DNA of 41,599 nt from a virus (taxonomy: Duplodnaviria > Heunggongvirae > Uroviricota > Caudoviricetes): the IMG/VR virus record IMGVR_UViG_2740892231_000012; one strand, 5' to 3'. A program made the position numbers and the translations under genes. The notes under the pieces are model-generated. The model did not search any database. It was not told where the DNA came from and saw nothing but the letters and a program-made list of their open reading frames with translations. Of the stretch, positions 1 through 41,599 are shown one piece after another (position 1 is the stretch's first letter; the number at the start of each line of letters is the position of its first letter).

Positions 1-285
1 ATGATTATCAATAACGTCAAACTGGTGCTGGAAAACGAAGTGGTACACGGTTCGCTGGAGGTGCAGGATGGCGAAATCCGCGCCTTTGCCGAAAGCCAGA
101 GCCGCCTGCCAGAAGCGATGGACGGCGAAGGTGGCTGGCTACTACCCGGCCTGATTGAGCTGCATACCGACAACCTCGATAAATTCTTCACCCCGCGCCC
201 GAAAGTCGACTGGCCCGCCCATTCGGCGATGAGCAGCCACGACGCGCTGATGGTGGCAAGCGGCATCACCACCGTGCTGGTATAG
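1..285 (+). pseudogene. phnM: 5' fragment (94 aa) of a phnM-like gene (phosphonate C-P lyase pathway), ending at a premature stop at the prophage junction
   Basis: Translation MIINNVKLVLENEVV...SGITTVL matches my recollection of the E. coli PhnM N-terminus (about 378 aa in full). The reading frame stops at 283-285, immediately before AT-rich phage-end sequence. Confidence 0.6.
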
Positions 286-408
286 CGCGGCGATTTTTTT
301 GATACCGATTTGCATTTCATTTGATACCGCTGAAAAACGCCGATACGCAACTTATTTGATACTAAATCGGCGCTTTTCTTTTGGGTTTTAGAATGAGTTT
401 TTAAGCGT

Positions 409-1146
409 TCACTCACTCTCTTTTAAACCAGTTTTAACTGTTTGTGGTTTTGGGTAAGGCTGGACTTTGAATAGCTTTGTGTTGAGGCGTTTTCTGGCCC
501 TCTTGTTCAGAAACCGGATGTAACGAAACTGACGGAATTTATGAACACTGGCTCTGTCGATATTAGCCCTCAGATGTTCACCTCGCTGTCCGCCTCGTTT
601 AATGGCATTCCTGCAAATCTCGTGATACCACTCGCCATCAAGTTCATAGAATGTTGATTCGTGGCTGCCTACATAATCAAAATTGCTTGCCTGATACACG
701 ACACCAAGACAGCCACAACGCTCATCTGCAAACGACTGAACCCACTGTACCTGCGGATAAAGCTGCCTGATTAGCTTGAGCGCGTAACTGATTGCCCTTG
801 ATTCGGAGTTTCTCGGCATACAGTCATGCAGCCATAACCGGTTAAGCTCCATATATTCACGGTTCCGCGTGCCCGTTACGACGCGTGCACCACTGTTTGG
901 ATTAAGGGCATAGCCCCATTGCATTACGCCAACCAGCTCCCGTTCTGAAAATATGCCCAGATGAAGGTAGGAGTTATTTACGAAACGGTGGCTGTAATGT
1001 TTATTGACGATGACCAGTCTGGCCAGCCAGCAACTTATTGTCTCAACCCGCAACTCACGGGAGCCATAACCAACGATATTGTCGTTATAGCGAATAAGTT
1101 CAGGCGTGCTGATGATACGGGATGTGACTTGCTTTCTGTTCCCCAC
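409..1146 (-). CDS. mom: Mom-like DNA modification protein
   Basis: 245-aa ORF that is the last gene before the phage end and overlaps the 3' end of a Com-like zinc-finger ORF, as in the Mu com-mom operon. The true start may lie downstream of 1146. Confidence 0.65.
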
Positions 1147-1300
1147 GACAGGATTTCCTTGTGTATGTGGGGTGCTCTGTGGCGCTCGGAGATGTGATTT
1201 GATTGAGGGTTTTACAGCGCGGACATTTTACTTCCAGATAACTGAAACTGGCCCGTGCCAGTAGCTTATTGCAGTGTCGGCACCGTATGTTTCGATACAT
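1100..1300 (-). CDS. com: Com-like zinc-finger translational activator of mom
   Basis: Contains [10 protein letters not shown]...VKCPRCKTL, two CxxC pairs as in Mu Com. Internal ATG at 1300 has an AGGAGG 9 nt upstream; the longer ORF reaching 1345 is probably not translated. Overlaps the mom start. Confidence 0.7.
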
Positions 1301-1342
1301 GGCCGCATAACCTCCTGCTTTGTTGTTGATGCCTTTCTCATG

Positions 1343-1490
1343 CAATCGATCGACAAAAACGATCGATTCGATTTGTTTAATTGATACAACAAATAGATTG
1401 AAAAGTCATCAACAATGATTCAGGGAGGTGATTATTTACTTAAAGAAAACGAAGAGTTAGCGAGTGAAAACGATCATAAAATGATCATTT
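1343..1490 (-). promoter_or_regulatory. GATC-rich region upstream of com-mom, candidate Dam-methylation-sensitive mom promoter region
   Basis: Several GATC sites clustered just upstream of com (in CGATCGAC and ACGATCGATT near 1345-1365, and CGATCAT and ATGATCAT near 1470-1490). In Mu, the mom promoter is controlled by Dam methylation of upstream GATC sites. Confidence 0.4.
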
Positions 1491-1573
1491 TATTGACTTT
1501 TTATCCAGTGAAGGTAGGATCGCGCGTATATGTAGTATGTTTCAAATCAACAGGATACTACATAAAAGGGAAA

Positions 1574-1612
1574 CCCAGCATAGCTGGAACTATGCTGGGT
1601 CAATCTGTAAAA
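1574..1612 (-). terminator. Candidate rho-independent terminator for leftward transcripts (perfect 10-bp inverted repeat followed by a T-rich run on the minus strand)
   Basis: CCCAGCATAG-ctggaa-CTATGCTGGG at 1577-1602. On the minus strand the stem is followed by TTTCCCTTTTAT. Confidence 0.4.
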
Positions 1613-1707
1613 ACTTGCATCAATGCTTTACTTCGAGCTCGTGGCGTATCCTATGATATTCCCCGGTCTCCTGTAAAGCAGAGATGCATAAAAAGGAGAT
1701 CTTTATC

Positions 1708-1878
1708 ATGGATAAAGAGCCTGTTTGCCCTGCCTGTAAGACTCCCTTACAGCTCATCTATCGCCGTTCTCGATCTCAAAATGGCAAGACATACAAACCA
1801 AAAAATGCTTCCTGTTTCAGGATGCTGATATGTCCTGCCTGTTCTCCCCGGAGGGAAAATACACAAAACGTGCATTAA
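1708..1878 (+). CDS. Small hypothetical zinc-ribbon protein (56 aa, CPAC...CPAC)
   Basis: ATG at 1708 is preceded by AAGGAG at good spacing. Two CPAC motifs. It is the only plus-strand ORF inside the cargo block. No homology recognised. Confidence 0.35.
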   Translation: MDKEPVCPACKTPLQLIYRRSRSQNGKTYKPKNASCFRMLICPACSPRRENTQNVH

Positions 1879-1916
1879 CAAATTCACCCGGCAGGGAAAC
1901 CTGCCGGTCGGTATTG

Positions 1917-2162
1917 TTACATCATAGTACCGTCAGTTCCGGGCTGAACCGGCTCTGGTTGCTCTACGGCTTGAGGCTCATTCTCCGTGCTGTTTTCAGC
2001 CGGAGAATGGCCAACCATTCGGGCCAGCACTTCATCAACATATGCGTCGATTTGTGCCTCAAAATCCTTGCGAACCTGCGCCTTCAGCACGCGGTTCACT
2101 TCTTCAGAATAAAGTGCCTGTTTGACAAGCTCTTCAGTAACCGTGCCTTTAATCTCTGGCAT
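1917..2162 (-). CDS. Hypothetical protein (81 aa, acidic and Pro-rich C-terminus)
   Basis: ORF co-oriented with the esterase, with GGAGAA ahead of the ATG. No homology recognised. Confidence 0.4.
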   Translation of the reverse strand: MPEIKGTVTEELVKQALYSEEVNRVLKAQVRKDFEAQIDAYVDEVLARMVGHSPAENSTENEPQAVEQPEPVQPGTDGTMM

Positions 2163-2197
2163 GAATATTCTCCTTTTGCAGGTATATTGCCCCGTTA

Positions 2198-2380
2198 TCA
2201 GAGCGGGGTCGGGTCGTTTGGGGATGACGGTGCCTGTGCTGTTTTACTGAGTTTTTCAGCTGCCGCATCATCAATTTTACGGCGAATATAATTTCTGATG
2301 ACCTTATAACCGCCGCTCACCAGATATAACGCACTGACCACTGCGCAGAAATAAAGCAGCATTGTATGAACGAATGTCAT
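2198..2380 (-). CDS. Hypothetical small membrane protein (60 aa, one predicted TM helix)
   Basis: Hydrophobic N-terminal segment LLYFCAVVSALYLVSGG followed by a basic stretch. Co-oriented with the esterase. Confidence 0.35.
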   Translation of the reverse strand: MTFVHTMLLYFCAVVSALYLVSGGYKVIRNYIRRKIDDAAAEKLSKTAQAPSSPNDPTPL

Positions 2381-2526
2381 ATAACCTTACCTTTGATATT
2401 GACTACATAATTCGTTATCGGGTAAAAACATCGAAGCGACTGATAACCACTCCTTCGGGAGTATTTTTATTTTCCTTTATGGGTTAGGTAGCTCCCGCCA
2501 GCCATATCATGACCGGCGGGATTTTT

Positions 2527-4566
2527 TTATTCTGTTACCGCTTTTTTCACTTCCACCACAATGCTGTCAATCAGCACCGGGTAAGTTGCATTTTTTGTGA
2601 TATCCGTTACGCGGAGTTTGTCCACCGGGAAAGTTCCTACTGGTGACTGCGTCAGGGTAAACGCGGCACCATCCTGACCATCAATAACCGGAATAACCTG
2701 AAGGCTGTTATTTCCTGCAAAACGGAAGGCCAGCGTATGCCATTCATTATCAAATGCACCAAAGGTTCCCAGTTTCTGGTTATTTGTTGCCACTTTTGCA
2801 TTGTGGTACATCACATTCAGGTCTTTTGCGTCTGTCTGGATGTAGAACGATGCCAGCAGATTATTCCCTGCATCCCCTGTCAGGGTGACACCCTGCGGCA
2901 GAGAGGAAACCGGCCAGTAAAGCGCCATGACATACTGGTTTGCCACCAGGTCGCCCGGTACTTTAAAACGACAACTGATTAAACCACCATTTTTCAGCAG
3001 TTCAGCACCAGTACCGGCATCATGATCCAGATACCAGGATGATTTACCTGTTTCCTTGGTCAGTTTCATTGCCTTACCACCTGTGCCTCCTGCATCACTG
3101 ATAATTTCAGCTTTACCGCCAGCCGGCTCCCAGCCCTGGGCTTTCAGATTTCCTTCTGACTCACTGACACGGTAAGACAGCAGTGTTGTGGTTACTGCTT
3201 CAGTTTCTGAAGGTGACGGCACTGGTGCTTCAGTTTCAGAAGATGGAACATCGGCTTTTACTGTGGTTCGCCCCGCATGAGTCAGAACTGCCGTGGCCAG
3301 ACGGTCGGAAATAATCCCACGACGTGCCCATGAACTGAAATGGCTGGCCCGGTCCGTAGATGTCCAGGTGGCGGCACTGTTACGCCACGTTGAGCCGTAA
3401 TAACCAATGGATTCAATATCCGGGTCTTCTGCCGGATTGTTGGTGGGTACATTCGCGCCATTTTCATCTGTCATTAATGGGACGAAATGAATGTTTTTAT
3501 CTGTTTTATTTTTGTAGCCGTCATAGATTGCCTGGTATGCCTGTTCGTTTTTCTGTTTCCAGAAATACGTGGTATCACCACAAATCCACGGAACGCCAGC
3601 AGCACTGCCACCGGTACACTGTTCCGCCTGTTCAGCCAGGTCTGCGCGGAATTTTTCCACCATCGCCAGAAACAGCGCAGAATGCTCCGTCGGCTTCGCA
3701 TCAATATCAAACTCGCCCTGCATCCACACCACAGCAAGCAGGCGGTTTTTCGGGTTCTTCGCCAGTGCCGCTTTTGTCCGGCTGATTAAGTCCTTATACA
3801 GCGGCTTATCCACACCCCAGCGGGCTGAGTCCTCTGAAGCACCCGTGCTGTCACTGTACGTGCCGTCAGCACCCACCGTGAATGCAGAACCACCACGGCA
3901 GCAGGGAACCAGCAGAATCCCCGCATCTGCCGGAATAAACGGCAGCAGTTTTTTGGCAATGTGAAGCCCCTGACCCACGGTGCCATATTGCCCTTTAGCC
4001 ACATCCGCTTTCGGGTGATTTTTTCCACTCATATCCTGCACATCATGCAGACAGTGGTCGGCCAGAATGATGTCGTTATACTGACAGGCTTTACCTCCCG
4101 GCGTGACTGTACTGCGACGGGCTAACTGCATAATACGCGGTTCGGGGCGGTCATATGTCTCCGGCAGTGGCAGACCTTCACCGTAAGCCATACCGTTTGA
4201 CTGACCAGCAAGAACCACCACGTAATACCAGGAAGGGGAGCTGGAAGCAGTTTCATTTCCTGACGGACGGGTATGTGTTTCAGCATTATCCCAGTCTGAC
4301 GGTTCAGCAGTACCGGCAACATCAGCACTTAACGGAATGACCGCACCAATACCCGCTCCGGTAATTTCCACACTCGGATCACCGGATACTGGCCTTACCC
4401 ACAGGCAATCCCGGGTATTAAAACTGATGAGACAGTCAGCAAATGTCATTCCTCCTTTTGTTTCGGCCGGAGGAAAGGGAGCCTCAAGAAATGCCGCTGT
4501 ACCACCGGAAACTTTAACAGTAAAGTTTCCGGGCATTGATGATAGTTGAACCCATTTGGACGTCAT
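2527..4566 (-). CDS. Putative carbohydrate esterase, sialate O-acetylesterase (SASA/DUF303) family, resembling prophage NanS-p; cargo gene
   Basis: 679-aa ORF with VVVLAGQSNGMAYGEG, which matches the GQSN catalytic-serine motif of SASA-family SGNH esterases. Long C-terminal domain looks like a carbohydrate-binding module. Sits between gin and com, where Mu has no gene. Confidence 0.6.
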   Translation of the reverse strand: MTSKWVQLSSMPGNFTVKVSGGTAAFLEAPFPPAETKGGMTFADCLISFNTRDCLWVRPVSGDPSVEITGAGIGAVIPLSADVAGTAEPSDWDNAETHTRPSGNETASSSPSWYYVVVLAGQSNGMAYGEGLPLPETYDRPEPRIMQLARRSTVTPGGKACQYNDIILADHCLHDVQDMSGKNHPKADVAKGQYGTVGQGLHIAKKLLPFIPADAGILLVPCCRGGSAFTVGADGTYSDSTGASEDSARWGVDKPLYKDLISRTKAALAKNPKNRLLAVVWMQGEFDIDAKPTEHSALFLAMVEKFRADLAEQAEQCTGGSAAGVPWICGDTTYFWKQKNEQAYQAIYDGYKNKTDKNIHFVPLMTDENGANVPTNNPAEDPDIESIGYYGSTWRNSAATWTSTDRASHFSSWARRGIISDRLATAVLTHAGRTTVKADVPSSETEAPVPSPSETEAVTTTLLSYRVSESEGNLKAQGWEPAGGKAEIISDAGGTGGKAMKLTKETGKSSWYLDHDAGTGAELLKNGGLISCRFKVPGDLVANQYVMALYWPVSSLPQGVTLTGDAGNNLLASFYIQTDAKDLNVMYHNAKVATNNQKLGTFGAFDNEWHTLAFRFAGNNSLQVIPVIDGQDGAAFTLTQSPVGTFPVDKLRVTDITKNATYPVLIDSIVVEVKKAVTE

Positions 4567-4860
4567 AATAATCAGCCTGTTCCTGAATAAACTGAATTAT
4601 CATATCCACAGACCGATAAACGCCATTTTGCGTTAATTCAGTAAAGGCCCAACAAAGGGAGCGTCTTATTTTTCCGAAACGCTCGCAGGATAATAACGAT
4701 AAAGGGTTGAAAGGCCGATATCAAAAATAAGTGCCACCTGTCTTCGACTGACACCCCCGGCCAGTAAACGCCCAACCTGCTCGTATTGTTCCTGCGTGAG
4801 ACGGCGGGGTCTGCCGCCGGTTCGTCCCCTTTCACGGGCAGCNNNNNNNNNNAGAGCGTC

Positions 4861-5603
4861 TTATTTTTCCGAAACGCTCGCAGGATAATAACGATAAAGG
4901 GTTGAAAGACCGATATCAAAAATAAGTGCCACCTGTCTTCGACTGACACCCCCGGCCAGTAAACGCCCGACCTGCTCGTATTGTTCCTGCGTGAGACGGC
5001 GGGGTCTGCCGCCGGTTCGTCCCCTTTCACGGGCAGCTGCAAGACCAGCCCGTGTCCGTTCGACAATTAATTCACGCTCCATTTCTGCCAGCGCACCCAT
5101 TATGTGAAAAAAGAAGCGCCCCATGGGGGTTGACGTATCAATGTTGTCAGTAAGACTACGAAAATTTATCCCCTGTTGCTGTAATTCATCTGTCAGCGCA
5201 ACAAGGTGGCGCATACTGCGCCCCAGCCTGTCCAGTTTCCAGACCATCAGCGTGTCACCGGGTTTTAGTTTCTTCAGTGCCCGCTTCAGTCCCGGCCGCT
5301 GTGTCGTTTTACCACTCATTTTGTCTTCAAAAATCTGCTCACATCCTGCACATTCCAGCGCATTTCTTTGTAAACCGGTGTTNNNNNNNNNNACATACTG
5401 CGCCCCAGCCTGTCCAGTTTCCAGACCATCAGTGTGTCACCGGGTTTTAGTTTCTTCAGTGCCCGCTTCAGTCCCGGCCGCTGCGTTGTTTTTCCGCTCA
5501 TTTTGTCTTCAAAAATCTGCTCACATCCTGCACATTCCAGCGCATTTCTTTGTAAACCGGTGTTCTGGTCATTTGTTGATACGCGTATATAGCCAATCAG
5601 CAT
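4861..5603 (-). CDS. gin: Gin DNA invertase (serine recombinase); coordinates include an N10 gap at 5383-5392 and its duplicated flank
   Basis: MLIGYIRVSTNDQNT...GDTLMVWKLDRLGRSM...INFRSLTD...GRFFFHIMGALAEMERE is closely similar to Mu Gin / Hin-family invertases. A second copy of the gin 3' end at 4666-4842 is a gap-flank duplicate. Confidence 0.9.
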
Positions 5604-7756: not shown

Positions 7757-8316
7757 TAAATATTCTCCTCTTCGTGACTGTTTGCATATACGTAAATAAA
7801 CGTCTGCCATGCAGGCTTATAACGGTTCAGAATACATTCCAGCGCACCACCCTCATAAATACGCAGCGGGGTGAGAATATCATCCAGCACATTCATATTC
7901 CGGTAGCCGGTTTCACTGTTTATCGTGACAATACTGACCCACTGTGAATCCGGTGATGGCTGAATATCTATTTCATAACCAAACTCTGCCGCAAACCGGA
8001 TATAAAATTCACGGTTCAGCGAAGGCTTCATCCGGTATTTATTCCCGGCATAACGCTGTCGTTCTGTGATGGTGGCTCCGGCCATATCACACTCGGGAAG
8101 GCCGAGATAACGCTCCCAGTCTTCCAGAAGCAGACGGGAACTGTCAGGGAAACGTTCTGCCAGCAGTTGTTTTCCCGTCCATGCAACACGTTCGGTGGAA
8201 TGGCTGAGGCCAAGGCATAACGCAGCCAGTACGGATGACGGCCGCTTGTCCCAGGCCAGTCCGTCAGGCAGCAACTGCAACAGGGCGCGCTGATGCGGAG
8301 TGAGGGTTACAGCCAT
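7756..8316 (-). CDS. Baseplate protein (Mu gp48-like)
   Basis: 186-aa ORF placed between the baseplate J-like gene and the tail fibre gene, as in Mu; translationally coupled to both. Confidence 0.6.
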   Translation of the reverse strand: MAVTLTPHQRALLQLLPDGLAWDKRPSSVLAALCLGLSHSTERVAWTGKQLLAERFPDSSRLLLEDWERYLGLPECDMAGATITERQRYAGNKYRMKPSLNREFYIRFAAEFGYEIDIQPSPDSQWVSIVTINSETGYRNMNVLDDILTPLRIYEGGALECILNRYKPAWQTFIYVYANSHEEENI

Positions 8317-30445: not shown

Positions 30446-31139
30446 TTAACGGGGAAGTGATTTTTCATACTGCCTGCAAACGGCGTCATACCCCATCAGC
30501 GTGCGTTCGGGCATTCCCATCGCGGCCAGCATTTTGCGGCGGTGCCATCGCTTGAGACGCTCCAGCACATCTGAGGCCAGGGCGGGGTGTTGCTCCAGCC
30601 ACTGCCAGTTTGCCACACCTTCGCCGCCGTTCTGCGCGGCCGTCTGCGATTTCACCCAGCGGTTAAGAGCGGTTTCCGCACCATCAGAGATAAAGCCCTG
30701 CCGGTGCATCACTTTCCAGATGGCGCGAATTTTGGCGGTCACCGTACCCGGTTTTAAGGCCCGGTTAACCGGTTTCTGACGCACTTTAAAACCGCGTTTT
30801 TTGAAAACATCCAGCACGCGGGATAACTCATCCGGTGACATNNNNNNNNNNGGCGGTTTCCGCACCATCGGTGATAAAGCCCTGCCGGTGCATCACCTTC
30901 CAGATGGCGCGAATTTTGGCGGTCACCGTACCCGGTTTTAAGGCCCGGTTAACCGGGTTCTGACGCACTTTAAAACCGCGTTTTTTGAAAACATCCAGCA
31001 CGCGGGATAACTCATCCGGTGACATATCCCGGCAGCTGGTTTTGCCGGTAGCTGCCAGCAGCGCGGATGTATAAGTCTCATCATCCAGGGCAAGCTCGCG
31101 CTTTGCCACATGAATGGCGGATATCAGTTTTCCTCTCAT
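30446..31139 (-). CDS. gemA: GemA-like protein (Mu gp16 family); includes N10 gap at 30842-30851 and duplicated flank
   Basis: MRGKLISAIHVAKRELALDDETYTS...TGKTS...MSPDELSRVLDVFKKRGFKV fits the GemA family pattern. The track shows the same text on both sides of the gap. Confidence 0.65.
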
Positions 31140-31432
31140 ACCGTATTTACCTTTTTACGGACATGGAAAGCCTTTTCTGCCTCATCCCACCGGGCATGGT
31201 GTGTTGGCGGAATAATCATTATGTGCCAGCCATCTCTGCTTGTTATTCGGCAGAAAAATTCACCGTTATATAACACAATGGCCTGCTGAATGAGCGCATC
31301 AGCCGCCCGTTCAACCGGATGTCTTTTATCAAAAAAGCAGATGATTTTTCGACATAACCACCGGGTAATAACAAATGCGCCGAAAAAGGATGTGATATAT
31401 AAGCACCAGAACAACAGAGAACTATTGTCCAT
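31136..31432 (-). CDS. Small membrane-anchored hypothetical protein (98 aa), paralog 1
   Basis: N-terminal TM LFWCLYITSFFGAFVITRWLCRK; AAGGAG ahead of the ATG; diverged paralog of 31631-31927. Confidence 0.5.
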   Translation of the reverse strand: MDNSSLLFWCLYITSFFGAFVITRWLCRKIICFFDKRHPVERAADALIQQAIVLYNGEFFCRITSRDGWHIMIIPPTHHARWDEAEKAFHVRKKVNTV

Positions 31433-31630
31433 TATCTTTCTCCTTATTCACTCTTCTGCGGCATTCGGCACAGTCATCAGGGCTTTCAAATGTATCCGGC
31501 TCGCGATTATGAGCCAGATNNNNNNNNNNACTGGTTTTGCCGGTGACCGCCAGTAGTACGGATGTGTAGGTTTCATCATCCAGGGCAAGCTCGCGTTTTG
31601 CCACATGAATGGCAGATATCAGTTTCCCTC

Positions 31631-31927
31631 TCATGCTGTATCAACACTCCTGCGGATATGATAGGTATTATTTTCCCGATCGAGCTGAACCCGATACTCC
31701 GGAGGAATCACAAAAATATTAAAACCATCATCAGTTTTTATTCTTGAGTAGCATTCCCCCTTATGATATCTGGCCAGTGCATTAATCAGAGAAGTCGCCG
31801 CCTGCCCAATCAGGTATTTTTTATGAAAAATACTGATAACTTTCCGGCACAGCCATCGTGTAATGACGAATGCACCGAAAAAGGATGTGATATATAAATA
31901 CCAGAACAACTGCGAACTACTGTCCAT
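31631..31927 (-). CDS. Small membrane-anchored hypothetical protein (98 aa), paralog 2
   Basis: N-terminal TM LFWYLYITSFFGAFVITRWLCRK; preceded by a copy of the same 90-bp upstream segment and followed by a diverged copy of the gemA 5' end. Confidence 0.45.
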   Translation of the reverse strand: MDSSSQLFWYLYITSFFGAFVITRWLCRKVISIFHKKYLIGQAATSLINALARYHKGECYSRIKTDDGFNIFVIPPEYRVQLDRENNTYHIRRSVDTA

Positions 31928-32026
31928 TATCTTTCTCCTTATTCAGTCTTCTGCGGCATTCGGCACAGTCATCAGGGCTTTCAAATGTATCCGGCTCGCG
32001 ATTATGAGCCAGATNNNNNNNNNNGA

Positions 32027-35505: not shown

Positions 35506-36036
35506 TTATTTATTCAGTCCGGCGTCCTGTTCAAAAGGCTCGACATAAAAACTTTCAGCGCCTTTATTCACCTTAATACCGGCAATCCCTTTCACCGCAT
35601 CCGGCTCCGCCAGGACCGCTTCCTTGTTCACTTCCTCTTTCGTGCGGATAAAACGCTCAAGGCCCATACGGCGCAGCATTTCAATCACACCTTCCACATC
35701 ACGACTGACGCTGCATGATGGATTCCCCAGTCGCCATGACACCGTTCCGGTGGTCAGATTGGCAGTTTTGGTTTTGCCGCCGTTCGTCAGCTCATCACGG
35801 TTGGTTTTGCACCAGTCCTGAATCCCCTTAAAAAGCACTTTGATTTCTTTTTTAAGGTTTTCAATCTGCGGCGTATAACGGGCGGTGATTTCTGCCACTT
35901 CATCATTCATCGCTGTTTCCAGGCGCAGCGCCTCTCGCTGAATATCGCCCAGGGTGCGGATATCGCGGCTGACCTCTTCACGGGTCTGCGGTGCCGCCTC
36001 TGCTGCGGCCTTTAATTTTGTAACGCGTTTTGCCAT
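35506..36036 (-). CDS. gam: Gam host-nuclease inhibitor (Ku-like DNA end-binding protein)
   Basis: Close similarity to Mu Gam: ...LGDIQREALRLETAMNDEVAEIT..., ...WCKTNRDELTNGGKTKTANLTTGTVSWR..., ...LERFIRTKEEVNKEAVL.... Confidence 0.9.
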   Translation of the reverse strand: MAKRVTKLKAAAEAAPQTREEVSRDIRTLGDIQREALRLETAMNDEVAEITARYTPQIENLKKEIKVLFKGIQDWCKTNRDELTNGGKTKTANLTTGTVSWRLGNPSCSVSRDVEGVIEMLRRMGLERFIRTKEEVNKEAVLAEPDAVKGIAGIKVNKGAESFYVEPFEQDAGLNK

Positions 36037-36047
36037 TTTGTTTTTCC

Positions 36048-36341
36048 TTATTGCACTGTGCCTGATGCTTTATGCACGCGGTGGCGTTTAATGATGGCAT
36101 CCGCCCCAAAAGCCTGTACAGATGCCTGAAATTCCGCTGAGAGAAACTGAATAATTTCAGGGCTGTGATACTGGAGAATACTTGCATAAACGTCACAGAG
36201 TGACGTCGGCCTGTTATTCGTATCACGTTCTGTTTTTACATCCACACCAATCTTTTCATGCACTTCAACACAGTCATTGCCTGCCGGTTTTTCGTCATGC
36301 GAAACATGCTTAAATTCAAAAATAACGCGTACTTTGCTCAT
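36048..36341 (-). CDS. Small hypothetical early protein, tandem paralog A
   Basis: Starts MSKVRVIFEFKHVSHDEK; the adjacent gene starts MSKVVRIIFEYKEHVIHK. Confidence 0.45.
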   Translation of the reverse strand: MSKVRVIFEFKHVSHDEKPAGNDCVEVHEKIGVDVKTERDTNNRPTSLCDVYASILQYHSPEIIQFLSAEFQASVQAFGADAIIKRHRVHKASGTVQ

Positions 36342-36345
36342 GGAA

Positions 36346-36618
36346 TTACCCCTGCTGATTAAATTCATTACCTTTAATAACCCCGGAACGCATGCTCATA
36401 TCTTTCATGAGCGCACTGGCTTTCATTGCCACAAGTTCAGCAAAGTCTCTGCTTTCCGCGAGCATAACCACCCCAAAAATCATGGCGGGTCCATCACCTT
36501 TCTGCTTTATCCCGGTTGAACGTATGTCCAGACTTACCCCCATGCGCACTGTTCCATCAGCGTTTTTATGGATAACGTGCTCCTTGTATTCGAAAATAAT
36601 GCGTACGACTTTACTCAT
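36346..36618 (-). CDS. Small hypothetical early protein, tandem paralog B
   Basis: 90 aa; N-terminus paralogous to the gene at 36048-36341. Confidence 0.45.
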   Translation of the reverse strand: MSKVVRIIFEYKEHVIHKNADGTVRMGVSLDIRSTGIKQKGDGPAMIFGVVMLAESRDFAELVAMKASALMKDMSMRSGVIKGNEFNQQG

Positions 36619-36896
36619 CCTCTGGTCCTCGTTCTGTTTGGATAACTGACCCGGCGTCTGACCTCACGGCAGAACCGAATCATGGCATTAAAGGCTTCTT
36701 CCTCCGTCACCGCTTCCGGTATCCCCGGAACCAGTAACTGCTCCTGTTCATCACGTCCATGACGCGCCATAACCTCAATCACATGCCGTACCGTGGCAGG
36801 CTTTCCGGCAACTATCGGCAATGCACCTTCCGGCAGGACGTAACCAAACTCAATAAGACCACTCGACCACGCCCATGCAATGAGATTTTTTTTCAC
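36615..36896 (-). CDS. Hypothetical early protein
   Basis: 93-aa ORF coupled to neighbours. Confidence 0.4.
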   Translation of the reverse strand: MKKNLIAWAWSSGLIEFGYVLPEGALPIVAGKPATVRHVIEVMARHGRDEQEQLLVPGIPEAVTEEEAFNAMIRFCREVRRRVSYPNRTRTRG

Positions 36897-36897
36897 C

Positions 36898-37164
36898 TCA
36901 CACCTCCCAGTAAACCGTGCAGCCGCTGATGCGGGTGGCCTTCACACGGCGGCGCAGGCCGTTGGTCTGTATGGTGATTTCAATTTCACCGGTTCCCTGC
37001 ACGTTGCCTACCGGCGGCGTGGTTTTCAGTGCAAAACGTTGTGGGTAGCGCTTACTGCGTTCCAGTACCGCACCGGCAAGTTCGGTCAGACGGCGCGCGC
37101 TGTTCAGGGAGTCGAATAAATTCATTTTGTTACCGCAGGATTGCATATTCATATAACACCTCAT
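36898..37164 (-). CDS. Hypothetical early protein (candidate kil-region gene by position only)
   Basis: 88-aa ORF downstream of B in the early operon. Confidence 0.35.
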   Translation of the reverse strand: MRCYMNMQSCGNKMNLFDSLNSARRLTELAGAVLERSKRYPQRFALKTTPPVGNVQGTGEIEITIQTNGLRRRVKATRISGCTVYWEV

Positions 37165-37392
37165 TTAGCTGACTTGTTTCGCACCAACAGAACGGCATAT
37201 TCCGCTGTAAACTTCTGTCGCACCTTCGCGATCAAGTCCGGCAGATATCACCATTCGTGTGCGGTCATTAAATTCAAAAAGTAAATCGCCACATTCTTTA
37301 TTTTCGGCCAGTGAAATCACCTTCACGTTATCGAAATTAACCAGGTAAAAGCGTCCGTAAATATCAGGAATATAAAATACCGCCATAATCAC
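37165..37392 (-). CDS. Hypothetical early protein
   Basis: 75-aa ORF immediately downstream of B with ATGA overlap. Confidence 0.35.
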   Translation of the reverse strand: MIMAVFYIPDIYGRFYLVNFDNVKVISLAENKECGDLLFEFNDRTRMVISAGLDREGATEVYSGICRSVGAKQVS

Positions 37393-38321
37393 ACCTGTGA
37401 GAGTAATTCAGGGTTGGTATAAACCTCTTTAAAGGCCGCATTAATATGTTTTTCTGTCAGCGCCGCACCTTCACCGCTGGCGGTGAGCCACGCCTGGTTA
37501 AGCGTATGTGTCAGAACGCGTAACGCTCCCGGCTTTTCAGCGATAGCCTGCATGACGGCCAGCTCGGCCTCACCACTGATACCCCATGCCCTGGCAATGG
37601 CCAGCACATCCGCCTTTTTGGCCTTGCGAAGTTGTTTTGTACGGGCAAGACGGCTGAACAGGCGCGATAAATCATCAACGGCGCGGCGTCCACCTTTAAA
37701 CAATCCGCGCGGGTTACCAATAAGCACCATCCCGATCCCCGTGGCGTCCTGAATTGCCCGGAGTTGCTCCAGACCGTCAATACCAAGATGATCCGCCTCA
37801 TCCACAATCACCAGTCCACGCGTTCCCATCAGGCGACGGCGGATGGCGCGGGATAATGCCCCTTTGTTCGCGCGGGTGTAATCAATCCCCAGCGCATCGG
37901 CCAGCTCCAGCAGACACTCCGTGACGCTGGAGTGCGCGGGTGACAGGGTGATCATCCAGGTGTTTGGTTGCTCCTGGCAGTAATTACGGGCGGTGGCCGT
38001 TTTACCTACCCCCGGCACGCCCACAATGACGTTAATACAGCCCATCAGGCGAACCGCCTGAAACAGTGCGCGCAGCTCCTGAACTGTCTGCGTTTCCACA
38101 AACTGCGGCGGTTCCGGCAGTGCGCTTTGTTTATTCCAGTTCTCATACCAGGAACGCAGGGAAGCAGCCACAGCGGCGTTATCGCCTTTATATTTCCCCT
38201 TGCGGAAAGCCGATAATGTGCCGTCGGAAATTCCCGCCTCTCTGGCGATGGCATACTGCGTCAGTACGCCGCCATCAATAAGTTCATCAATGGTCTTGAT
38301 TACATCGTTAATATCAGTCAT
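37389..38321 (-). CDS. B: Transposition target-DNA activator B (AAA+ ATPase, MuB-like)
   Basis: 310 aa with N-terminal HTH region, Walker A GVPGVGKT and Walker B LVIVDEADHL; immediately downstream of the transposase. Confidence 0.9.
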   Translation of the reverse strand: MTDINDVIKTIDELIDGGVLTQYAIAREAGISDGTLSAFRKGKYKGDNAAVAASLRSWYENWNKQSALPEPPQFVETQTVQELRALFQAVRLMGCINVIVGVPGVGKTATARNYCQEQPNTWMITLSPAHSSVTECLLELADALGIDYTRANKGALSRAIRRRLMGTRGLVIVDEADHLGIDGLEQLRAIQDATGIGMVLIGNPRGLFKGGRRAVDDLSRLFSRLARTKQLRKAKKADVLAIARAWGISGEAELAVMQAIAEKPGALRVLTHTLNQAWLTASGEGAALTEKHINAAFKEVYTNPELLSQV

Positions 38322-38391: not shown

Positions 38392-40597
38392 TCAGGCCAG
38401 CGGGTCATTTTCTTTTAATTTCGCTTCGAGCAACTGCAATCCCCGCTGGAAATTGCGCTCGTATTCTTCATCAGGCTCATCATCAACGGCAGGTTGCTGA
38501 ACGGCCACCGTATTACCTACCGGGCGATAGATGTTTTCCAGCCAGGGCTCCTGCGGCTTGTGCTCCAGCACGTTGACAACCTCATCCTCGGCATCACGGA
38601 TTTTTTCCTCTGCGCGTTTACGCATGCCTTTAAGGCGTTGCTGCTGTTTGTAGTATTCCGCGCTAACCGGGAAGGCTTCGCGTTTATTACCGTCCCATAC
38701 CGCCTCGCAAATCACGCTGCCATCCAGGCGACGTACGGTAATTCGTTCGGCATCATGAATGTCATAGCTGATAAGCACCTTGCGGCCATGCTCATCACGC
38801 AGCTCGGGCGCGTAGTAAATATTATTCAGCCAGCGTATTTCACAGCGTCTTACAGGGCGTTCCACCATCGGCCGGAACATGTCCCGCAATTCCACATCGG
38901 ACAGCCATTCAATTTCCGTGTCCTCTTCCGCCAGGCGTTTTTTTCTGAACTCCGCCGGGCTGTAATGCTTGCCGTTCGGCTTCACCGGTAATTCATCGTG
39001 CGGCCGGTTGTTGTACCACTCAACACCATCACGAATGGCATCAATCAGTTCAGACCAGGACGGTAAATCACGCATCGCTGACTGCTGCCGGGCGTTCAGC
39101 CGTTTGCCCTGTTGCAGGGCAGTAAATGCCGAGCGTAAATCGCGGTTGGTTTTGCGTAACGTCTCGCGATCTGCACCTTTCCCGAAATAGGTGCGGTATT
39201 TACGGGCTATGCGCATCGGTAATGTGCGGTTAAGCCGTTCGATAATGCCTCGTCCCTGCGGATTACCGGCAATCCCGGTCGGGTGATTAATCCCCAGTCG
39301 CGGCAGTATCCCCACAACCTCCTTATCCAGGATGTCGGCGGTTTCCCCGGAGCCGTTATCCGAGTAATACAGAAACGGTTTGCCGTGATGGCGAATGCCG
39401 TGCTGTATGGCACCGGCTACGGCGAAAACATTTTCAGCCAGGTCAAGGCTCCAGCCCACCACAAAGCGCGTGCCACCGTCGATAACAAAGGTCACTTCCG
39501 GTGCAAATGGCCGACCGTGAACCGGGTGTGCGCATTTCAGCTTCATGCCGTGACCGTCACCAATCCAGACATAATTCACCGGCATTTTTGACCAGTCGCG
39601 GCGCGTGAATCCCTCAAGCTGGCGGTATTCACTGCCGGTCACCCGGCCTTTTTGTTTCACCACTTCCGGCAGTTTCTTCATTGCGCGGCGAATGGTGTCA
39701 TAAGACGGCATGATATCGAGCATATAAGGCTCATCAGCGTGCCGGTGCTGCCATTCAGCGACAAAATCCTCGTAAGCCTCGGTCATTGGTCGGCCGTTTG
39801 ACTGGCGATACTGCGCCAGAAATTCGGGCAGCCAGTTAATATCTTCGGCTTTTATTTCCTGGCGCTTACCCGGTGCCAGTAAAAGCAGGCGTTCAGCGGC
39901 GTTCTGCGCCTTGTTAAAGGCCGCAATCCAGCGTTTCAGCGTGATTTCACTTAACGCGCGGCTGTTTCCCTTTTTGGCGTTCGCCGTCTCAACCATTGCC
40001 ACAATGCGCTCGTCCAGCTGCGAACGNNNNNNNNNNTGCAATCCAGCGTTTCAGCGTGATTTCACTCAACGCACGGCTGTTTCCCTTTTTGGCGTTCGCC
40101 GTCTCAACCATTGCCACAATGCGCTCGTCCAGCTGCGAACGTGCCAGGTTGTCAACGATAAACCGGATAGCCTTCGCACAGCTGAAACCAGGTTGTTGCG
40201 CGACTTTCAGAACTTCGCTGACGATCGCGATTCGTGCATCAGCCACCTGGCGCTGGTTTTCAGTCAGGGCATTAAGGCGTTCGAGCATCAGTTGTGGTGA
40301 TCCGCGATATGCCTCCACCGCATCAACCACGGCAGGCGAGCGTCTGGCCTTTGTCACCACCGGAGCTGGTGATTCATCGGCTTTTTGCGTCATCAGTTGC
40401 AGGGCGTAGCGTTCACGTAATGCCTGCTGCGTCACTTCAGGTAAACAGTCGATGCTGTATTCAGTTGCTTTAGAGCCTGAGCGACGACGGGAACAACAGC
40501 TTTTCCCTTGTACGTAACGTTGTAATGCCTGGCGAATACCTTTTGTTGTAGCAGGCATTCCGGGCGCGCCAATCAGTTCTTTTGCAATGACATACAT
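38392..40597 (-). CDS. A: DDE transposase A (MuA-like); includes N10 gap at 40027-40036 and a duplicated flank of about 100 bp
   Basis: Long ORF downstream of ner, with MuA-like N-terminal DNA-binding region and catalytic core. The track shows ...ARSQLDERIVAMVETANAKKGNSRALSEITLKRWIA on both sides of the gap. Confidence 0.9.
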
Positions 40598-40598
40598 A

Positions 40599-40847
40599 TC
40601 ATGACGCCTTTCTCATATAGCTCTTAACCTGGTATCTACTGGGCCAGATTTCTTCAGGCGATACCCCAAGAGCATCAGCAATTATTTGCTGATACGGTCG
40701 GCAAGGAGTACGTAATACGCTTTTCAGCGAATCCCTGCTGTAACCAGCCTTTAAAGATAAAGAGCGCAGTGATAAGCCAGCCATGTGTAAGCGCGCCTTG
40801 ATGATTTCAGGCGGCCAATCGTGATCTGAAACTTCTCTTCTACTCAT
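40599..40847 (-). CDS. ner: Ner-like DNA-binding regulator
   Basis: 82 aa; ...AGLSLRSLSLKAGYSRDSLKSVL...QQIIADALGVSPEEIWPSRYQ resembles Mu Ner / Nlp. First gene of the early operon. Confidence 0.8.
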   Translation of the reverse strand: MSRREVSDHDWPPEIIKARLHMAGLSLRSLSLKAGYSRDSLKSVLRTPCRPYQQIIADALGVSPEEIWPSRYQVKSYMRKAS

Positions 40848-41014: not shown

Positions 41015-41599
41015 ATGAACATGAAAAACAGTTCTTTTCTCGACGAAGGAAAAGAACCAGTGATCGAACGGATTTTTCGTCTTGCAGAGCGTTACAAATC
41101 GAGAAGTGAGGCGGCTAGAGCATGGGGAATAAACGTTCAGACATTGCAGAACTACTACAAAAGGAGAAACAATCAGCCGCCACCACAACCAAGAAAGCAC
41201 CATCTCCAGAACATTGCAGAAAGAGAACATGTATCTATGGAGTGGCTAGTCCATGGTTATGGTGATGAGCCAAGCATGAAAAAAGAACCAATTGAACAAG
41301 CAAAAAGAACAAAAAAACAAAGAATTGATGATAGTGATTCCATCATCATGAGGGCGTGGGACTCGCTAACTTCATCTGAACAAGAGATTTTGTCCAACTT
41401 ATTGATCAGAAAAGGGGCCGAACTACTAACCGTTTTGCTTGATACAGATATTCAAAAACTGCACTCATTGAGCGGAGTCAAAAGAGCACTAGCATTGAGT
41501 CTACAAGAGTTACCCGATGATACTGTAAGAGAGATTTATGAAGAATGTGAAGCTAAGGTTAATCATTTAAATGTAACCCAGAAAAAGGCTAGTGCGTAA
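41015..41599 (+). CDS. c: Repressor c-like protein
   Basis: ATG at 41015 preceded by AAGGAA; 194 aa to the stop at the window edge; divergent from ner at the position of Mu c. The ORF track starts earlier at 40886, inside the operator region. Confidence 0.65.
   Translation: MNMKNSSFLDEGKEPVIERIFRLAERYKSRSEAARAWGINVQTLQNYYKRRNNQPPPQPRKHHLQNIAEREHVSMEWLVHGYGDEPSMKKEPIEQAKRTKKQRIDDSDSIIMRAWDSLTSSEQEILSNLLIRKGAELLTVLLDTDIQKLHSLSGVKRALALSLQELPDDTVREIYEECEAKVNHLNVTQKKASA

Follow-up and report, generated by a model that had tools for sequence, protein, structure and literature searches.

The window, the whole stretch of 41,599 nucleotides analysed here, opens within a host gene and passes into phage DNA after 280 bases. 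We read its first 408 bases as follows, where R1 to R3 are the candidate transposase sites of the right end:

1-280, plus strand: 5' fragment of phnM (codons 1-93 plus one base), 100% identical to the intact phnM of E. coli 120899
1-285, plus strand: truncated hybrid open reading frame of 94 aa, its last codon and TAG stop supplied by the phage end
280/281: phnM'/R junction, present in the window, reading ...ACCGTGCTGG / TATAGCGCGG
277-280, strand not applicable: predicted copy, CTGG, of a 4-bp target duplication, as expected from six of six insertions of the family
281-408, strand not applicable: very likely the right end (attR) of a transposable prophage of the Sp18 type, extending from its terminus 5'-TATAGCGCGGCG as far as the stop codon of mom
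298-305, plus strand: TTTGATAC copy 1, core of R1 (putative terminal transposase site), at base 18 from the terminus
320-327, plus strand: TTTGATAC copy 2, putative R2 core (enrichment, left-end counterpart, conservation in Yersinia phages)
355-362, plus strand: TTTGATAC copy 3, putative R3 core (same three grounds as copy 2)

The hybrid reading frame begins with ATG, its translation opens with MIINNVKLVLENE and it runs for 94 codons. When aligned, every base of 1-280 was identical to the intact phnM of E. coli 120899 and of other strains, and upstream of the fragment, in the source contig CCPU01000114.1, stand phnC, phnD, phnE, phnF, phnG, phnH, phnI, phnJ, phnK and phnL, all of normal length. 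Given this complete match, and since the fragment follows phnL in the phnC-P operon, we identify the gene as phnM itself and not merely as phnM-like. Codons 1-93 encode PhnM, while it is the phage end that creates codon 94 (G/TA) and the TAG stop at 283-285. After ...GTGCTGG the intact gene continues with ACGCGGTG, whereas the window continues with TATAGCGCGGCG, and four independent insertions (n=4) are identical from TATAGCGCGGCG on and divergent before it, which puts the switch from host to phage at 280/281. The original prediction, that a PhnM N-terminus stops where phage-end sequence begins, thus holds, and the alignment of 1-285 to an intact phn operon that it proposed gives 280/281 as the exact breakpoint; the segment does align to phnM, and it is not a naturally short gene followed by intact host DNA.

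Two features near the junction were set aside. A terminator-like hairpin at 272-290 straddles the junction and is an incidental product of the joining, not a feature in its own right. The 7 bases GGCGATT that the phage end has in common with downstream phnM match by coincidence and leave the breakpoint where it is.

The 94-aa product has no match to any Pfam domain and, among ~15 billion proteins, is recorded on one contig only, CCPU01000114.1 (517,583 bp; assembly GCA_000752815.1); an insertion at phnM nt 280 was absent from 5,426 complete E. coli genomes. Such a junction could be an assembly chimera, with phnM intact in the strain, and the scaffold is indeed of low quality in the prophage region. 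However, the first run of Ns lies at 4843-4852, which leaves the junction inside a single N-free contig that covers at least 1-4842 plus upstream host DNA, and the breakpoint falls exactly at the canonical right terminus common to independent insertions, a coincidence not expected of a random chimera. On these two grounds we take the phnM/right-end junction to be real, and a chimera to be a very remote prospect, the least probable of the alternatives weighed here.

The phage side of the junction belongs to a family that is widespread in E. coli. Its right terminal 132 bases are identical at 129 of 132 positions to the right end of Sp18 of O157 Sakai, and the sequence from 281 on matches hundreds of E. 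coli chromosomes, always starting at the same base beside different genes. The right end adjoins a fimbrial gene, bcsA, flgL, cheB, terB, sgrR and genes of other prophages, with the terminus at the same base next to fim, phnM nt 597, an Stx phage, lsrC, ygfK and sorM; the left end of Sp18-type phages was found in 10 different contexts. The expectation that Mu-type insertion is near-random and mutagenic fits this family, which occupies different gene-disrupting sites across genomes. We conclude, with a probability of about 0.9, that the DNA from 281 onward is the right end of an Sp18-type (Mu-like) prophage that entered phnM of GCA_000752815.1 at codon 94 by DDE transposition.

The remainder of the window carries the body of the prophage:

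281-41599, minus strand: Sp18-type prophage body, with structural and early genes on the minus strand; 16 contigs and 15 runs of 10 N
409-1146, minus strand: mom (DNA adenine modification), last gene at the right end; Pfam PF25680 Mom, E = 4.5e-77, and relatives annotated Mom
1100-1300, minus strand: com (zinc-ribbon regulator of mom); Pfam PF10122 Zn_ribbon_Com, E = 2e-12
37389-38321, minus strand: MuB-like transposition ATPase; Pfam Phage-MuB_C and AAA_22
38392-40597, minus strand: MuA-family transposase, its gene split by the N-run at 40027-40036; Pfam HTH_Tnp_Mu_1 and Mu-transpos_C
40599-40847, minus strand: ner-like early regulator; Pfam HTH_35
41015-41599, plus strand: repressor (c-like) at the left end, by position and orientation as in relatives

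The mom/com pair, the MuB-like ATPase, the MuA-family transposase, ner and the repressor stand in Mu order. Over 92% of the first 24.7 kb, identity is ~95% to stretches labelled 'inserted Bacteriophage Mu-like phage' in two Stx-phage records, and a protein identical to the repressor occurs on very many E. coli contigs at different loci. Intact relatives encode a transposase of 696 aa (an intact copy lies at 35517-37607 of locus L018) and a MuB-like ATPase of 310 aa. A phmmer search of the transposase against all PDB chains returned no MuA entry; its only matches were the ASV/RSV integrase catalytic cores, at E ~1e-4 over residues 363-426. Judged by these searches, the transposase is only remotely related to MuA and has a very diverged core.

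The body also holds a gene for a 679-aa SASA/DUF6645 protein (2527-4566, minus strand) whose DNA is 78-81% identical to genes of many Stx-converting lambdoid phages, where some relatives are annotated as 9-O-acetyl-N-acetylneuraminic acid deacetylase. The SASA/DUF6645 module is common to Mu-like and lambdoid prophages.

Three direct repeats had been noted in the right end, and TTTGATAC is indeed found exactly at 298, 320 and 355 on the plus strand. The spans given for them earlier (298-307, 320-329 and 355-364) are right in position, and their 10-base length just takes in the next two bases. The motif occurs five times in the window against 1.02 copies expected, a count reached in 0 of 100 shuffles, and three of the copies fall within 65 nt. 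Counted from the right terminus, they begin at 18, 40 and 75 nt. The left end, read from the source contig, likewise has three copies, which begin at 18, 113 and 165 nt from its terminus and have the same orientation relative to it; the terminal copy thus begins at base 18 from both termini. In the phages vB_YpM_Tongde and vB_YpM_5, all 24 of the 24 motif bases are invariant amid only 55-57% identity at the other bases of 281-380, which argues for selective constraint on the three motifs. Since the motif is enriched, recurs at the left end and does not vary in the distant relatives, the suggestion that the repeats resemble transposase end-binding sites is well supported, and the TTTGATAC copies are very probably transposase-binding sites (R1-R3).

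The original prediction also expected a 5-bp target-site duplication, as Mu would leave. We compared both junctions for six simple insertions of the Sp18-type family, which carry the following direct repeats:

lsrC, strain CFSAN027343: 4 bp, GACA
ygfK, strain B1_2: 4 bp, GGAA
fimbrial gene, strain 2009C-3554: 4 bp, AACG
phnM nt 597, strain 20R2R: 4 bp, AGGA
Stx2c phage: 4 bp, GATG
sorM, strain Sakai (Sp18): 4 bp, TTTA

The phage always spans 5'-TATAGCG (right) to GGTTACA-3' (left; TGTAACC when read from outside), a 4-bp direct repeat flanks it in six of six insertions, and record LC727881 annotates the same 4-bp duplication. A right terminus of 5'-TA is shared by the window, Sakai Sp18, four other insertions and the Yersinia phages. 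A reading with a 5-bp duplication and TG...CA ends was rejected, as terminus shifts of one base or a carried-over flank base fit the six insertions inconsistently; since only 4 bp with the TATAGCG right terminus fits all six, we dropped the 5-bp reading, and the earlier expectation fails for this family. To delimit Sp18-type prophages, one should therefore look for TA/TG termini and a duplication of 4 bp instead of the 5 bp of Mu.

Together these observations suggest how the insertion may have arisen. The transposase would recognise, at either end, three sites that contain TTTGATAC, of which the outermost lies 18 nt from the terminus, and would link the 3' ends of the phage to target bonds spaced 4 bp apart, showing little preference for particular targets; we infer the joining step from the anatomy of the ends and from the six other insertions.

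We retrieved the DNA past the window by way of a transposase fragment unique to this scaffold. The left phage terminus lies 272 nt past the end of the window and abuts codon 51 of bdm, which is followed by osmC and ddpF. The prophage is flanked in the scaffold by ...GCTGG on one side and by GGATG... on the other, with no common duplication. Where the rest of phnM had been expected at the other junction, then, a truncated bdm was found instead, again with no shared duplication. The terminus cuts bdm after codon 51 of 71 (positions 8002-8160 of locus L016, from the source contig). The bdm/phage junction, too, was absent from the 5,426 complete E. coli genomes; with neither the phnM nor the bdm junction among them, both events appear recent and strain-specific. 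In K-12, bdm and phnM lie on the minus strand, at 1.556 Mb and 4.317 Mb respectively, and the scaffold reads them in opposite directions, which makes the join one of the inversion type. The junctions beyond the one in the window are:

bdm'/L, present in the scaffold: ...GATAACGACATCC / TGTAACCAGG
L/'phnM, predicted: ...ATTCACCTGGTTACA / CTGGACGCGGTGGCGATT
R/'bdm, predicted: ...CGCCGCGCTATA / ATCCTCAGTGATATCTACC

The prophage is not assembled as one piece. There are 15 runs of exactly 10 N, all of them within the phage and none in the ~18 kb of host flanks (10 kb upstream included); they start at 4843, 5383, 6599, 13958, 18920, 25832, 26752, 27319, 29093, 29531, 30842, 31520, 32015, 32357 and 40027, and the last ends at 40036. 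Adjoining contigs overlap at 12 of the 15 joins, over 96-201 nt and with 2-16 mismatches, and these overlaps were left unmerged. For some joins each version of the overlap matches a different natural Sp18-like prophage with 0 mismatches, which argues that the differences are not errors. Two joins show this most clearly: at the join after 30841 one version matches locus L015 and the other loci L018 and L011, and at the join after 40026 one version matches 20R2R and the other matches ten others. Across an N-run, 31036-31529 and 31531-32024 are tandem versions of one early-region segment, 79-85% identical (families D1 and D8). They are probably the alleles of two prophage copies that ended up adjacent in the scaffold, and not a genuine duplication. 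Genes that span joins are interrupted or in part repeated, among them those for the Gin-like recombinase (4666-5382) and the transposase (38392-40597), and the apparent length of the prophage is ~41.6 kb, against 38.7-40.0 kb in complete relatives.

We think it likely that two or more diverged Sp18-like prophages are present in the genome, with one in phnM and another in bdm, and that the ~41.6-kb 'prophage' of the scaffold interleaves contigs of both. If two copies were threaded into one string, entry from phnM at the right end and exit into bdm at the left end are what would be expected.

Alternatively, the scaffold may be correct: inversely oriented Sp18-like prophages in phnM and bdm would have recombined and inverted the ~1.56-4.32 Mb segment (K-12 coordinates), leaving each prophage flanked by phnM on one side and by bdm on the other. 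Prophage-bounded inversions on the Mb scale are known in O157 (PMC7430833; PMC5931665), the join is of the inversion type, with phnM and bdm both on the minus strand in K-12 and opposite in the scaffold, and the prophage ends share no duplication. Mis-scaffolding through a collapsed two-copy repeat would, however, predict all of this just as well, and the region is plainly fragmented and interleaved. Moreover, the inversion would be asymmetric about ori/ter and would reverse ~1.9 Mb of one replichore, for which strong counter-selection is expected. In E. coli, reversal of ~1.9 Mb of a replichore including TerA, TerD and TerE is unlikely to persist. We therefore regard a recombinational inversion as unlikely.

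Far less probable still is that a single prophage moved by intramolecular replicative transposition from bdm to phnM, or the reverse, and left inverted copies flanking an inverted segment, as in the classical Mu-mediated inversion. The geometry would be the same as for recombination, with one old and one new flank per copy and no shared duplication, and both junctions are recent, being absent from the 5,426 complete genomes. Such an event nevertheless predicts identical copies, whereas the overlaps at the contig ends carry different alleles known from other natural prophages and a segment occurs twice, in versions with 79-85% identity; the fitness argument against the recombinational inversion applies here equally. 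With two diverged prophages interleaved in one scaffold as the preferred reading, the prophage region of GCA_000752815.1 should not be treated as a single element, and its right and left ends come from different loci.

That reading implies two reciprocal junctions, the left end joined to CTGG plus distal phnM and distal bdm joined to the right end; both are predictions, and a simple insertion into phnM is itself inferred. The predicted hybrid reading frame of 292 aa (left end joined to distal phnM) was absent from the protein collection, the query having assumed the distal phnM allele of another strain. Distal phnM fragments of 283 aa and 278 aa are found only on Logan/ENA short contigs. The 283-aa product (MAIGDVRDGG...), present on one Logan/ENA contig of 1,656 bp, starts at a GTG three codons past the insertion point, and could be the distal piece of phnM, from reads of this or a related strain.

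The insertion should have a clear consequence for phosphonate metabolism. PhnM is represented here by 93 of its full-length 378 residues, and no full-length amidohydrolase-fold protein is present. Besides cutting PhnM short, ~39 kb of phage would part phnN, phnO and phnP from the operon promoter. Established phn genetics holds that phnG-phnM are needed for cleavage of the C-P bond; with phnM truncated, the C-P lyase pathway is predicted to be inactive, and the strain should be unable to use phosphonates by this route, a phenotype deduced from those genetics. A literature search on the assembly accession and on the JNE phage records found nothing relevant. This is an ordinary strain-specific knockout by a known prophage family, and it has little significance beyond this strain.

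Mu itself is the model for the transposable phages with which this prophage is compared. The two share transposability, the early layout of repressor, ner, A and B, the mom-com pair at the right end and a left terminus of 5'-TG. They also share an arrangement of three sites per end (putative here), packed at the right end and placed one-plus-two at the left; Craigie et al. in 1984 reportedly described R1-R3 of Mu as packed at its right end and L1-L3 as one-plus-two at its left. The prophage nevertheless has no DNA-level similarity to Mu, its site motif is unlike that of Mu, its right terminus is 5'-TA instead of TG, and it leaves a duplication of 4 bp where Mu leaves 5 bp; Mu cuts its target 5 bp apart (PMC3325207). 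With a TA right terminus and a 4-bp duplication, the family is Mu-like in its working and yet fails two defining details of Mu.

It is tempting to ask whether the branch that holds Sp18 and the Yersinia Muvirus phages departs from Mu in its chemistry, with a TA-3' end, a 4-bp stagger and a catalytic core nearer to retroviral integrases than to MuA. We put this forward tentatively, from sequence comparison, and at somewhat less than even odds. A CA-3' end is, to our knowledge, near-universal. In the literature that we searched the 4-bp stagger and the TA end are undiscussed, and the only prior trace found was the 4-bp 'duplication' feature in LC727881; the departure may thus be undescribed as a mechanistic difference.

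Among the Yersinia Muvirus phages, vB_YpM_Tongde, vB_YpM_5 and vB_YpM_6 have a right end that begins with TAAAGCGCGC and carry three TTTGATAC copies at the same positions; they differ from the phage in the window in their host genus and in the 55-57% identity elsewhere in the end region. The vB_YpM_Tongde record (positions 1-400 of locus L021) includes host glyS and a further ~300 nt of DNA that is not phage, lying beyond the right terminus, as would be expected from the headful packaging of a transposable phage.

The closest known systems are Sp18 (O157:H7 Sakai, in sorM) and its STEC relatives, such as PhiFRIK804-3 and Mu_JNE082796, which have the same gene order, the termini TGTAACC... and ...CGCGCTATA, and the 4-bp duplication. 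Sp18 and its relatives are intact, transposing, non-circularising Mu-like phages that occupy strain-specific sites (PMC2669165; PMC7430833; PMC10132054), where their insertions disrupt genes (PMC7430833; PMC10132054), and STEC genomes carry one to three Sp18-like phages each (PMC10132054). These relatives differ from the present case in their insertion site, and the phage here is represented by what is probably an interleaved scaffold of at least two copies. The nearest parallel for the disrupted gene is E. coli 20R2R (NZ_CP062160.1), in which an Sp18-like prophage lies in phnM in the same orientation with both junctions intact (3001-3597 of locus L001 and 3237-3782 of locus L017). That insertion is an independent event, at phnM nt 597 as against nt 280 here, and two hits in a 1.1-kb gene may be a coincidence or may reflect a mild regional preference.
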